A stretch of DNA of 64,000 nucleotides from Bacteroidales bacterium UBA4360 (GTDB lineage Bacteria; Bacteroidota; Bacteroidia; Bacteroidales; UBA932): assembly GCA_002393945.1 (NCBI GenBank), contig DGSO01000020.1, positions 38,517 to 102,516 on the forward strand. The letters are read 5' to 3'. The translations under genes were made by a program, and so were the position numbers. The notes beneath the pieces are model-generated. The model saw nothing but the letters and a program-made list of their open reading frames with translations, was not told the DNA's origin and did not search any database. This document shows, in pieces, positions 26,051-29,250 of this stretch. Within the stretch, counting starts at the first letter, position 1; the number at the start of each line of letters is the position of its first letter.

Positions 26051-26485
<435 letters not shown>

Positions 26486-26524
26486 CGGCGTGAAATGCAA
26501 ACGGCTGTTTATCAGCCATTTAAA

Positions 26525-26560
26525 CAAAAGGCTTTCCTCGTTTTCGGGGAAAGCCTTTTG
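26525..26560. terminator. Bidirectional intrinsic terminator (V-ATPase operon / yggS)
   Basis: CAAAAGGCTTTCCTCG-TTTT-CGGGGAAAGCCTTTTG; a second weaker hairpin lies at about 26499-26521. Confidence 0.85.
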
Positions 26561-26584
26561 CTTAATCACGTATATATCAATAAA

Positions 26585-27388
26585 TTACATTTCACGCGGT
26601 CCAAAGATATCCGTGCCGATGCGCACCATCGTGGCACTGTGCCTTACCGCCACCTGCCAGTCTGACGACATTCCTATGGACAGTTCACGTATATGCGGAT
26701 TCACAGCCTGAATCCTCTTGAACAGCCTCTCAATCCTTGCAAAATCCCTCTCCACCACATCCATGTCATCAGTATTGGTAGCCATGCCCATGATACCAAT
26801 GATATTGACGTTCGGCAAAGAGGAAGACTGTGCTTCTGAAAACCTCGGACCTTCGGTCCTCGTCCCTCCCATTGCCGTCAGGGCCTGTGTGAAAGCAAGC
26901 TTTCCCCCATTCCCTGCCGCCAACGGGCCCCTCCCACTCATGTGCCGTGGGCGGCAACAGTTTTCTGAAGCACAGTCTTCCTCTTTGCCGATCAACGAAA
27001 CAATCTCCTCTTCCGTGAATCCTTGTTTGGTTTCTTCTGCACCAAGGTGAAGTTCAAGAAGGACGTTGATGACCTTGCCATTCTGAGCACCCCAGTTATT
27101 GATCGCTTCCAGGAGATGGAAGGAATCTACGGACTGGACAAGGGAGACATAAGGGAGAACAAGTTTGAGCTTATTGGTCTGGAGATGGCCGATGAAGTGC
27201 CATTCTATGTCTGCGGGAAGCTGCGGAACCTTGGCTGCAAGCTCCTGGGGGCGGCTTTCGGCAAAAATGCGCTGGCCGGCATCATAAGCCTCCTGCAGCC
27301 TTTCTGCAGGATGGAACTTGGATACTGCAACGAGGGCCACCCCCTGGGGGATGGCCGCTCTGAGATTATTCAAGGCTTCAGCTATCAT
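26585..27388 (-). CDS. yggS: YggS/PLPBP PLP-homeostasis protein carrying an in-frame insertion
   Basis: VAVSK (PLP Lys), WHFIGHLQTNK, LSIGMSSD, VRIGTDIFG; residues 134-192 derive from a palindromic element. Confidence 0.93.
   Translation of the reverse strand: MIAEALNNLRAAIPQGVALVAVSKFHPAERLQEAYDAGQRIFAESRPQELAAKVPQLPADIEWHFIGHLQTNKLKLVLPYVSLVQSVDSFHLLEAINNWGAQNGKVINVLLELHLGAEETKQGFTEEEIVSLIGKEEDCASENCCRPRHMSGRGPLAAGNGGKLAFTQALTAMGGTRTEGPRFSEAQSSSLPNVNIIGIMGMATNTDDMDVVERDFARIERLFKRIQAVNPHIRELSIGMSSDWQVAVRHSATMVRIGTDIFGPREM
26813..26990. mobile_element. MITE-like palindromic element, 178 bp, 31-bp terminal inverted repeats, in frame within yggS
   Basis: 26813-26843 CGGCAAAGAGGAAGACTGTGCTTCTGAAAAC matches the reverse complement of 26960-26990 with 1 mismatch; internal hairpins GGACC-TTC-GGTCC and GAAAGC-AA-GCTTTC. 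Mobility is inferred. Confidence 0.8.
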
Positions 27389-29250
27389 TACTTACGTCCT
27401 TTCTGCTGCTGTTTCTGCATTTCACGCTGCATCTTCTGGGCTTCTTCAAGCCTCTGCTGCCACTTGCTCTTAGGTGCAGGCTTGTTCTCTGCAGCCTTGA
27501 GCTTGGCGATAACCTTTTCGGGCTTTACGATCCACTTGCGGATTACCCATGTCTCTACCATCGTAATGAGGTTGGACAGCAGGTAGTAGTAGCTGAGACC
27601 GGAAGAAAGGTTGTTACAGACGAAGAACATCATGACAGGCATCATGTAGAGGCTCATCGCACGCATCATCTTGGCGTTGGGATCATCTCCTGTATTCTGG
27701 CCCTGCATGGTAATCTTGCTGTAGAAGAACATGGATGCAGCCATGAGAAGGGCGAAGAGAGAGATATGGTCCATGCCCAGGATGCTGGTTCCCCAGTGAA
27801 TCACATCGTCATACGCAGAAAGGTCTTCTGCCCAGAGGAAGGGTTCCTGACGGAGCTCGATGGATGCCGGGAAGAAACGGAACATGGCCCAGAGGATAGG
27901 CAGCTGGAGGAGCATCGGGAGACAGCCTCCCATCATGTTCACTCCGGCCTTCCTGTACAGTTCCATGGTCTCCTGCTGCTTCTTCATGGCATCTTCCTGC
28001 TTGGGATACTTGGCGTTGATCTTGTCGATGTACGGCTTCAGCGCCTGCATCTGTGCCGATGAAGAATAACTCTTGTATGCGAACGGAAGCACGACAATCT
28101 TGATGAAGATCGTCATTATGAGGATGATGATGCCGAAGTTCGAAATAAAGCGGCTGAGCCAGTCGAACAGGGGTATGATCACGTATTTCGTGAATACGCC
28201 GATAATCTTACCGCCCAGAGGAATCACCTTCTCATACGCATGATCATAAGCCTTCAGGCCCTTGTAGTTGTTGGGGCCGAAGTAGAATTCGAAGTTGGCG
28301 GTACCGTCGCCTCCTGTCAGTTTAAGGTCTGCCTGCATCTGAGCGCTGCAGTTCATAAGGTCATGGCTGGGGCTGTCCTTGGGAACGAAATCGATGGCGA
28401 ACTCGCCGTAGGAGAAGTTTTCTGGAGCACGCATGATGGCGCTGAAGAACTGCTGCTGGAAAGCGAACCACTCGATATTGTTGTTGAAACGCTTGGAACC
28501 CTTGCGGCCGTTGCCGATGTTCTCGGGCTTCTTGTCGTCCGGGAAGTAATAGTTAAGGCGGGAGTACTGAGTCTCGTTCTTGTAGCCCTTTTCAAGGCGG
28601 GCGATTGTAGCTTCGAAATCCACGGAAATGCTCCTGGAGCGGCTGGGATCAAGGTTCATGCCCACGAATGAAAGAGCCTCATTCATGGAGTAGGAGTCCT
28701 TGAGGAGCGTATATTTCTGCTCGATGTAACCGCCGCCTACAGGAAGGCGCATGACCACTGTCGAATCCGAAGAGGCCTCAGGAATATACTGGAAGGTGAA
28801 CTTCCTGGTGTCGATAGCCGTAGGGGCATAAACCGTAAAACCAAGGCTGGTCTTCTCCGGCTGAAGGAGAACAAGGTCTTCCTTGCTGTAGGTTGTATAG
28901 TCCTTGACCTTTACTGAATACGGCTGTGCGCCGCGGGTAGTAAAGGTAACCTGAAGCTTTTCATTTTCCAGAGTTACCAGCTGAGACTCGGCTGCTGCAG
29001 CCTTGTTCAGAAGGGAATCGGAATAGACAGGAGCAGCTTGCGCGGACGGAACTGCAGCTTCGGCAAGTTCGGGATGTTCGGCCCTGTAGGCGCTGTCAAT
29101 AAGCCATTGTGCATGTTCTTCTGCCCGTTTTGCCGAGTCAAGCTGAGCCTGGATTGCCTGCTGTTTCTGGACCTGGCGGCTCTGGTAGCCCATGAAGCCG
29201 AACAGGATGAGTGCTATAAGTACAAATCCGATAATTGAATTCTTATCCAT
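27388..29250 (-). CDS. yidC: Membrane protein insertase
   Basis: N-terminal TM, large periplasmic domain, NFGIII, GGCLPMLLQLP, LRQEPFLWA-DLS, SGLSYYY. Confidence 0.96.
   Translation of the reverse strand: MDKNSIIGFVLIALILFGFMGYQSRQVQKQQAIQAQLDSAKRAEEHAQWLIDSAYRAEHPELAEAAVPSAQAAPVYSDSLLNKAAAAESQLVTLENEKLQVTFTTRGAQPYSVKVKDYTTYSKEDLVLLQPEKTSLGFTVYAPTAIDTRKFTFQYIPEASSDSTVVMRLPVGGGYIEQKYTLLKDSYSMNEALSFVGMNLDPSRSRSISVDFEATIARLEKGYKNETQYSRLNYYFPDDKKPENIGNGRKGSKRFNNNIEWFAFQQQFFSAIMRAPENFSYGEFAIDFVPKDSPSHDLMNCSAQMQADLKLTGGDGTANFEFYFGPNNYKGLKAYDHAYEKVIPLGGKIIGVFTKYVIIPLFDWLSRFISNFGIIILIMTIFIKIVVLPFAYKSYSSSAQMQALKPYIDKINAKYPKQEDAMKKQQETMELYRKAGVNMMGGCLPMLLQLPILWAMFRFFPASIELRQEPFLWAEDLSAYDDVIHWGTSILGMDHISLFALLMAASMFFYSKITMQGQNTGDDPNAKMMRAMSLYMMPVMMFFVCNNLSSGLSYYYLLSNLITMVETWVIRKWIVKPEKVIAKLKAAENKPAPKSKWQQRLEEAQKMQREMQKQQQKGRK

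Follow-up and report, generated by a model that had tools for sequence, protein, structure and literature searches.

A palindromic insert in yggS of a Bacteroidales genome: probable member of a dispersed, structured repeat family that behaves like Rickettsia palindromic elements

INTRODUCTION

Rickettsia palindromic elements (RPEs), which Ogata et al. reportedly described in 2000 and which run from RPE-1 to RPE-8, are multicopy palindromic units of about 100 to 150 bp that carry no transposase and lie in frame in many housekeeping genes as well as in intergenic DNA. To our knowledge, in-frame palindromic repeats have mostly been seen as a peculiarity of Rickettsia and a small number of other reduced genomes. 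In this work, we analyze a 64,000-nucleotide stretch of Bacteroidales bacterium UBA4360 (contig DGSO01000020.1, positions 38,517 to 102,516; "the window"), in which a palindromic element of 180 bp, or 60 codons, lies within yggS on the minus strand (window positions 26812 to 26991). We conclude that this insert very probably belongs to a family of structured palindromic repeats, non-autonomous and found in ruminant-gut Bacteroidales, that resembles RPEs in its behavior.

Several other systems offer points of comparison. Classical miniature inverted-repeat transposable elements (MITEs), such as Correia/NEMIS, Nezha, Chunjie, ERIC, and RUP, are noncoding multicopy sequences of <300 bp with terminal inverted repeats (TIRs), occasionally found in frame; their TIRs are conserved and match those of a parent insertion sequence, and a target-site duplication is usual. 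In the attC sites of integrons, structure is conserved over sequence, one strand folds into the active form, and the central part is variable in length. RPEs are mentioned in PMC1458961 and PMC3733652. Repetitive extragenic palindromes (REPs) are hairpins of 20 to 40 nt tagged with GTAG or CGTC, and REPINs are REP doublets; together with the REP-associated tyrosine transposase (RAYT), they make up a system of non-autonomous hairpin repeats that persist vertically for very long periods, sometimes within genes, and that act as single-stranded DNA recognized by its structure (PMC8049555; 10.1101/2021.07.10.451892; PMC3733652). Intragenic invertons of Bacteroides are locus-specific switches that are flipped by an invertase within a population (PMC10028968).

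RESULTS

The insert in yggS and its protein context

The element is bounded by two 32-nt inverted-repeat arms (26812 to 26843 and 26960 to 26991) that are 97% complementary, with one mismatch, across a spacing of 116 nt. No comparable inverted-repeat match arose in 100 shuffles of the window, and, a terminator-like hairpin aside, the 64 kb contain no other long spaced inverted repeat. Folding of the 180-bp sequence is far more stable than that of its shuffles, for RNA (-108 kcal/mol; z = -8.6) and for DNA (z = -9.8) alike. It occupies nucleotides 398 to 577 of the yggS coding sequence (CDS), corresponding to residues ∼133 to 193, between EEEIVSL and NVNIIGIMGM. Neither the gene frame nor its mirror on the plus strand contains a stop, and both read GKEEDCASEN...FSEAQSSSLP; the mirror frame is the one actually read in some natural orthologues (P0002 to P0004; locus L001). 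A first-pass annotation made from the sequence alone had recognized the palindrome, its single mismatch, its in-frame position with pyridoxal 5'-phosphate (PLP) motifs intact, and its openness in both orientations, all of which hold for this copy; only its dimensions, given as 178 bp with 31-bp terminal repeats, fell slightly short.

The 267-aa YggS protein matches Pfam family PF01168 and retains the PLP lysine and the other invariant columns. Chains of PLPHP/YggS proteins in the PDB align on both sides of the insert, with 6kzw covering residues 11 to 129 and 189 to 262, and relative to 6kzw the insert stands in place of 7 residues. An AlphaFold model built with 50 homologues places a TIM barrel at a predicted local distance difference test score (pLDDT) of >90 and residues 137 to 189 in a structureless loop with pLDDT of <50, modeled between the helix at 126 to 139 and the strand at 194 to 201, outside the barrel. 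Helix-to-strand loops of TIM barrels lie on the face opposite the active site, here the PLP site.

The element is real, repeated, and retained in RNA

Logan unitigs from two metagenomes and a single-organism run tile the element exactly (26400 to 26865, 26843 to 26953, and 26936 to 27400), and it is also present in independent assemblies, MAGs (metagenome-assembled genomes), and runs from cattle, sheep, goat, deer, and giraffe samples. In metagenomes, word depth in the element interior is 5 to 10 times that of its flanks; in the single-organism run (X2), it is 4 to 11 times the flank depth and at least 6 distinct flanks attach to inner parts of the element, indicating that the element is repeated in the source genome. 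At the RNA level, contigs of two metatranscriptomes from the same sample cross the yggS/element junctions on either side, and no joint bypassing the element occurs among them. The summed depth of shared element words in these two metatranscriptomes is about that of the yggS flanks, though the DNA depth is 5 to 10 times higher, so that RNA contig depth, itself weak evidence, lends no support to an abundant small RNA from the element. Outside the element, window positions 27148 to 27228 show a separate peak in unrelated ruminant metagenomes (X7 and X8), with a word depth of 180 to 590 compared to 5 to 7 beside it; this is a highly conserved stretch of yggS (around WHFIGHLQTNK) that is common to many species.

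A family with a variable stem and a near-invariant core

An exact 17-mer from the element core occurs at nine loci in four rumen Bacteroidales MAGs, one to three per MAG, among them a yggS orthologue together with a second copy in truB of the same MAG. Scan patterns were built on the most conserved core segment (26925 to 26959); a degenerate version found at least 119 stretches in ruminant-gut metagenome contigs and had zero matches in viral contigs, and a covariance model recovered six copies that the scan pattern had missed. The resulting size of >120 related copies, drawn from ruminant-gut metagenomes and Bacteroidales MAGs, is a lower bound. With the covariance model (R1), the element in yggS is the sole copy in the 64 kb (42 bits; E = 8e-12). 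The element matched nothing in collections of plasmids, phages, and viral contigs, no tRNA or tmRNA match was found, and Rfam 15 (including twister, hammerhead, pistol, hatchet, HEARO, GOLLD, and ROOL) returned only spurious matches to long-hairpin miRNAs far below gathering scores. Literature searches by topic or by literal motif recovered no published description, and the family is apparently undescribed in rumen Bacteroidales.

Across copies the unit measures 85 to 190 bp. Its outer stem, P1, comprises 14 to 37 nearly perfect base pairs and differs in sequence in most copies with pairing almost always kept, and its core-proximal end always reads ..YNGAAAC / GTTTCNR... The enclosed core of ∼60 to 75 nt has 28 invariant columns among 77 aligned copies and reads, on its G-rich strand, rUGGCC-A-CCCUC-GGCCnyG-UAAGA-GGGAGGGGCCC-[hp2]-GGGAGGGG-[hp1], with two invariant GGGAGGG(G) boxes. 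In the window, this structure-bearing strand is the minus strand, the sense strand of yggS. Counted over copies irrespective of their kinship, as are the wobble counts below, four covarying helices are paired in 94% of cells compared to 76% in column shuffles and 38 to 53% when partners are slid, a level that 0 of 500 shuffles reached. Helix S2 (CCCnn/nnGGG) is paired in all 77 copies, its two variable positions showing three pair types (UA/GC/AU) and two (CG/UA), respectively, and helix S1 (nGCC/GGCn and outwards) overlaps it, an arrangement that the alignment suggests could be either a pseudoknot or a set of alternative hairpins. The stem of hairpin hp1 occurs as GGACC/GGTCC, GGGGC/GCCCC, and GCTGTC/GACAGC. 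In hairpin hp2, alignment pairs 48-53/78-83 are 97% paired with three covarying pairs, and pair 51-80 is G.U in 27 sequences; the hp2 interior is ∼55 nt long in the window copy, whereas most copies have 4 to 20 nt.

Some copies show further repeat structure. One subfamily shares a common stem, AGAACTTTTTGGGGTATCAGTATC (∼185 bp, or 130 bp with a short hp2), and is nested in additional inverted repeats of its flanks; a right flank beginning GTGCACCT.. is conserved in L099, L111, L144, L155, and L074, and flanks prolong the palindrome in L131, L108, and L088. The AGAACTTTTTGGGGTATCAGTATC subfamily may thus be the center of a larger composite repeat. Pairs of copies lie 0.3 to 4 kb apart in L046, L058, L129, L064, L067, L094, L073, L089, and L106; those of L046 (at 329 to 429 and 963 to 1062) belong to different core subfamilies and share one THUMP-like methyltransferase gene. 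The motif GGCAG or GGCAA, with ..CTGCC in the opposite arm, is found repeatedly at the outer terminus of P1 or close to it in L032, L061, L089, L092, L095, L105, L106, L137, L148, L154, and the window, followed in several copies by a purine-rich GGAGG or GAGGTA, and may be a weakly conserved terminus.

Strand asymmetry and constraint on the core

The two strands of the element are not equivalent. On the G-rich strand, wobbles in outer P1 are mostly G.U (55, compared to 11 A.C), as are those in the core helices (69 G.U compared to 17 A.C; p = 1e-8), and folding is more stable for this strand in 101 of 107 copies. The excess holds even for CDS copies in which the host mRNA carries the C-rich strand (17 G.U compared to 2 A.C), which argues that the molecule that folds is the G-rich strand of the element rather than the host mRNA. 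The sole positional trend is a mild excess of copies downstream of genes.

Core and stem evolve very differently. For the trmB copies L089 and L153, third codon positions are 45% identical, the core is identical at 71 of 71 nt, and P1 is 42% identical; for yggS in the window and in L027, the corresponding values are 78%, 98%, and 92%. From these identities, P1 changes at close to the neutral rate, subject to a constraint to pair, while selection, or gene conversion among copies, keeps the core constant. Outer stems are ∼50% identical, the random level, between copies whose cores are 97 to 100% identical, and such identical cores with unrelated stems at unrelated loci fit the same picture without any special mechanism. 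Within one MAG, the copies in truB (L026) and yggS (L027) have cores that are 97% identical and P1 stems that are 70% identical, the changes being mirrored between arms. L108 and L111 have the same P1 in different flanks, and a P1 is also common to L041 and L131, as expected for recent spread of the whole unit.

One loop filled, flipped, reduced, or empty

Among the 119 best anchorable YggS homologues (54 to 95% identity), 78 carry the core in the same loop, read on the C-rich strand in 36, on the G-rich strand in 31, and in unclear orientation in 11. A stem relic alone remains in 29 homologues, and in 12 the loop has 9 to 14 residues, like that of solved homologues. The 82%-identical orthologue at L001 has homologous arms and an inverted interior, including the unpaired arm base. 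A 224-aa allele (P0012/L004) is an exact deletion of 129 nt (43 codons) between copies of TTCTGAA, and its DNA reads ..GACAGTTCTTCAGAAGTACTGTC..; TTCNGAA is itself palindromic and is therefore repeated directly as well as inversely within the arms. Like L004, the "empty" allele L157 is a stem-only relic: it retains a perfect 11-bp stem with a GTA loop, which matches the outer portion of P1 (27 bp) in L158, a filled relative. Elsewhere, the arms of orthologues differ by mirrored substitutions that alter the encoded residues and preserve pairing (e.g., GGGCGGGCACACCC/GGGTGTGCCCGCCC compared to GGAGCAGGCACACCC/GGGTGTGCCTGCTCC). The element decays freely in many YggS lineages.

Host genes and empty alleles

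Approximately 40 of 132 copies (∼30%) are spanned by an open frame that reaches at least 50 codons to either side; these in-frame copies represent at least 17 host families, and further copies are intergenic. CDS copies were selected by their open frame, and frame-breaking copies are invisible to this screen. All 18 host ORFs (open reading frames) tested against Pfam are recognizable, intact genes, in most of which Pfam domains either match on each flank of the insert or are interrupted by it: MurB (two orthologues), TrmB, TruA, TruB, TilS, PolA (with the element between the 5'-3' and 3'-5' exonuclease domains), PmbA/TldD, DsbD, a HemN-like radical-SAM enzyme, GltD, CutC, shikimate kinase (AroK), an APH-RapZ_C protein, an aminotransferase, a ComEA-like protein, and a THUMP-like methyltransferase with two copies in one gene. 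RNA-modification enzymes (TrmB, TruA, TruB, TilS, and the THUMP-like methyltransferase) are frequent hosts, which could be due to chance or to which loops tolerate insertions.

The CDS copies are read on both strands and in several core frames, the strand being the C-rich one for ∼22 copies and the G-rich one for ∼9. They have 3.6 of 6 frames open, compared to 2.1 in other copies and 1.7 in shuffles, an excess that survivorship of read-through-compatible copies predicts. All 7 yggS copies are open in both orientations but only 21 of the 34 CDS copies overall are, and we therefore reject openness in both orientations as a property of the whole family.

Occupied and unoccupied alleles at orthologous sites are found for yggS and trmB. 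In empty TrmB alleles (DVYS + 7 aa + VTxVQTFYE), the loop has the length of filled alleles minus P1 and core, indicating that the whole unit was added and that neither arm is native. The finding of unrelated stems around identical cores led us to consider that the stem is copied from the target as an inverted duplication of host flank. This is ruled out as a rule by the empty trmB alleles, by the gradual divergence of P1 with its host, and by the movement of P1 with the core between loci of one genome (L026/L027 and L108/L111), and homing of the core into preexisting hairpins is rejected as a general rule on the same evidence. The loop-length arithmetic in yggS is compatible with a few arm-encoded residues replacing native ones.

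A second, shorter family of in-frame inserts, encoding peptides of the CHSERSEES, CHAERSEESV, HSGLDPESL, and VIPSGAKESL type and sometimes in tandem, shares host genes with the palindromic element and, in TrmB, even the loop (murB L084 and L100; YggS P0037, P0042, and P0111; TrmB P0144 to P0166 and P0209); a consensus DNA search of the window for this family gave zero matches. Some TrmB alleles look like hybrids whose left half is read as the C-rich strand and right half as the G-rich strand, and others have a tandem pair of elements in the one loop (P0195, P0232; P0190, P0168, and P0233), which suggests partial inversions and repeated insertion.

Features of the insert and its host gene

Table 1. 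Features of the palindromic element and its host gene in the window (window coordinates)
Feature	Position	Strand	Basis
yggS, PLP homeostasis protein, 267 aa, intact host	26585..27388	-	ORF, PF01168, PDB alignment, AlphaFold
Whole element (outer stem P1 + core)	26812..26991	-	Arms, folding, frame, covariance model
P1 arm, encodes ..FSEAQSSSLP on gene strand	26812..26843	.	97% complementary to 26960-26991
TTCTGAA, first copy	26834..26840	+	Small palindrome; its center is the one arm mismatch
hp1, short hairpin GGACC-TTC-GGTCC	26844..26862	-	Stem covaries among copies
Conserved box TCCCTCCC (GGGAGGGA on G-rich strand)	26863..26870	-	(Near-)invariant columns, 77-copy alignment
hp2, variable hairpin closed by CCC...GGG	26868..26927	-	97% paired, covarying
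Most conserved core part: GGGCCCCTCCC, then interleaved helices S2 and S1	26925..26959	-	Covariation; scan basis
Helix S2, CCCAC/GTGGG	26933-26937 with 26947-26951	-	100% paired in 77 copies
Helix S1, interleaved with S2	26941-26946 with 26953-26959	-	Covaries at 3 pairs
P1 arm, encodes GKEEDCASEN on gene strand, prolongs protein helix 126-139	26960..26991	.	Pairing, AlphaFold
TTCTGAA, second copy	26963..26969	+	Inverted and direct repeat of 26834..26840

Next to the gene, a 21-nt inverted repeat (window 26520 to 26565; 90% complementary, 4-nt loop) has the look of a probable bidirectional terminator and separates yggS (minus strand) from a convergent V-ATPase K-subunit gene (26063 to 26485, plus strand).

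DISCUSSION

In this study, we characterized a palindromic insert in yggS that very probably belongs to a dispersed repeat family. The first-pass annotation had proposed a coding-compatible MITE family in this lineage, analogous to RPEs; more than 120 copies and at least 17 host gene families bear out the family and the analogy, and the label of a classical MITE does not fit, as the terminal repeats are not conserved between copies. The checks it suggested were borne out as well: copy number by the word depth in X2 (4 to 11 times the flanks), the 1 to 3 core matches per MAG, and the ≥119 metagenome stretches; frame by the 18 of 18 host ORFs intact by Pfam; orthologues by the element-free and relic YggS alleles; structure by the disordered insert outside the barrel in the AlphaFold model; and retention at the RNA level by contigs that keep the element.

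A copy that lands in a tolerant loop, keeps the frame, and is stop-free leaves its gene intact, and in YggS the 60 extra codons would be translated as a disordered loop. As shown by comparison of orthologous alleles, the core flips between the P1 arms after insertion, the interior is removed by deletion, e.g., between the TTCNGAA repeats of the arms, and the arms undergo mirrored, compensatory substitutions. Inversion would proceed by recombination between the arms, and deletion by slippage between the direct repeats that the arms bear. The active form is probably the single-stranded G-rich strand, more likely as DNA (a transposition or recombination intermediate) than as RNA, with an enzyme acting in trans. 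DNA is favored over RNA because wobbles accumulate on the G-rich strand whatever the direction of host transcription, because the core is far more conserved than the gene around it, and because orientation is unrelated to transcription. MITE-like transposition would be a candidate for the movement of the element.

Several observations weigh against the interpretation of a mobile, RPE-like repeat family. No target-site duplication was found, in that no direct repeats flank the stems among the copies and that empty and filled trmB alleles differ by P1 plus core and nothing else, and no terminal sequence is conserved among the copies. In the 2.5 kb around 107 copies, the recurrent neighbors are the host genes themselves, and transposase, integrase, and reverse transcriptase genes are not among them. 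The first-pass annotation had already remarked on the lack of a target duplication and of a nearby transposase, and the wider set of copies agrees with it. A second copy was not found within the 64-kb window by short-word BLAST or by the covariance model with filters off, and no polymorphism in presence or orientation was seen inside one population in contigs, which drop rare variants. Unlike that of IS200/IS605-type single-strand transposons, the orientation of the element is unbiased, with no preference relative to GC skew (42 positive, 46 negative), to the coding strand of the locus, or to adjacent genes. Finally, the perfectly kept cores in old vertical copies exceed what is predicted for a decaying selfish element, and host-level selection or gene conversion among copies is needed to account for them.

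The rival that stands up best, although we consider it the less likely reading, is that the element is more than selfish and that its core functions as a structured nucleic acid under selection at the level of the host. It would be a new noncoding RNA or ribozyme, or else a site that acts as single-stranded DNA in replication, recombination, or repair. This reading overlaps with the interpretation of a mobile repeat and differs from it solely in who benefits, the genic copies being tolerated places. The 28 invariant columns, the four covarying helices (two of them overlapping), the strand-specific wobble pattern, the two invariant GGGAGGG(G) boxes, and orthologous cores that are 98 to 100% identical at third-codon-position identities of 45 to 78% all speak for such a function, but orientation is random relative to host genes and neighbors and no promoter is conserved, which means that a defined transcript is not ensured. 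RNA depth of the element only at about the level of the yggS flanks in the two metatranscriptomes, free decay in many YggS lineages, and the lack of an Rfam match also speak against it. In an extended form, to which we give a minor but substantial chance, the core would be a new class of strand-specific folded nucleic acid, a self-processing or protein-recruiting module of single-stranded DNA or RNA under purifying selection even within genes; the GGGAGGG(G) boxes may alternate with a G-quadruplex, P1 would be a sequence-free clamp, and an as yet unrecognized enzyme system of Bacteroidales would use or mobilize the element.

The finding of either orientation among close orthologues with retained arms, the openness of all 7 yggS copies both ways, and the description of intragenic invertons in Bacteroides (PMC10028968) raise the possibility that the segment between the 32-nt repeats is flipped by an invertase to give two YggS isoforms, i.e., phase variation by recoding. 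We regard this as improbable: the same element occurs in at least 17 other gene families and in intergenic DNA, the isoforms would differ solely in a loop predicted to be disordered, and 13 of 34 CDS copies would gain stops if flipped. Furthermore, no strand-changing joint was seen in 8 runs, as judged from contigs, which drop rare variants, and the conserved yidC-yggS-V-ATPase neighborhood contains no recombinase or invertase gene.

Hairpin elements that ribosomes bypass are known in yeast mitochondria, and the very stable hairpin expected in the mRNA here could likewise point to removal of the insert before the protein is mature, whether by RNA excision, ribosomal bypass, or intein-like splicing, in which case frame compatibility would be incidental. 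Such removal is very improbable, however, as RNA contigs cross both junctions exactly with no skipping joint, intein or intron motifs are absent, the frame is open through the element in 18 host ORFs with the Pfam domains of intact genes (in a screen that sees open-frame copies only), and the greater number of open frames in CDS copies (3.6 of 6, compared to 2.1 elsewhere) is a signature of selection for read-through. Lastly, an assembly fold-back artifact, for which there is only the a priori suspicion that perfect hairpins in metagenome assemblies invite, or a native, lineage-specific YggS loop of no mobile origin can practically be dismissed, given the same sequence in independent assemblies, MAGs, and runs from samples of several ruminants, the unitigs and Logan contig pieces that overlap or span its junctions exactly, and the near-identical cores in unrelated genes.

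The habit of in-frame palindromic insertion is thus seen here in abundant, free-living rumen Bacteroidales and in at least 17 housekeeping gene families. With one loop filled either way, reduced to a stem, or empty, the entry and exit of such elements, the origin of new protein segments, and the maintenance of the family become testable. The combination of a near-invariant core, a sequence-free paired stem, and strand-specific wobbles suggests a single-strand-specific enzyme or function, beyond junk DNA. On the practical side, protein families become inflated and split by these inserts in the annotation of rumen MAGs, and short-read assemblies break at them.

Classical MITEs, REP/RAYT repeats, attC sites, and every Rfam family were considered as identities for the element, and each was rejected on its defining features. 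With attC sites, it shares conservation of structure, a strand-specific fold, and a center of variable length; unlike them, it has no RYYYAAC/GTTRRRY boxes at the stem base (on inspection of the alignment, AAAC/GTTT stands at the inner end of P1), its outer ends are variable, and its copies are solitary, with no cassette arrays and no integrase nearby. It resembles MITEs in size, inverted repeats, lack of coding capacity, copy number, in-frame insertions, and presence or absence at orthologous sites, but its outer repeats differ between copies, a duplication is not seen, and it has no known parent insertion sequence; its terminal repeats are not TIRs of the transposase type but a stem that is variable in sequence and conserved in pairing. 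Like intragenic invertons, it places inverted repeats inside a CDS around a segment that occurs in either orientation and can be read through in either, but it is dispersed, and its orientation differs between species rather than within a sample. With REPINs, it shares the persistence of a hairpin-forming, non-autonomous element (PMC8049555; 10.1101/2021.07.10.451892), but it is a single unit with a multi-helix core of ∼70 nt, ∼30% of its copies are intragenic, only some subfamilies have CGTC at the P1/hp1 junction, and no RAYT (Y1/HUH) gene was found next to any copy, as judged from the 2.5 kb around 107 copies.

The closest likeness is to the RPEs, with which the family shares a short palindromic multicopy unit, in-frame genic copies that leave the domains of their hosts in place, and an encoded peptide located in a loop, as modeled for YggS. 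It is a likeness of behavior, in the sense that the element works like an RPE, and we claim no membership by sequence. We know of no closer functional counterpart of RPEs outside Rickettsiales, and our literature searches recovered no comparable description. The differences are nonetheless considerable, as the hosts belong to another phylum and are free-living gut anaerobes with ∼53% GC rather than intracellular bacteria with reduced genomes. In contrast to RPEs, the Bacteroidales element combines a stem that varies in sequence with a near-invariant, branched core of overlapping covarying helices; it occurs in both orientations and as stem-only relics at one orthologous site, and it bears a strand-specific wobble signature and a core that is conserved beyond its host gene.

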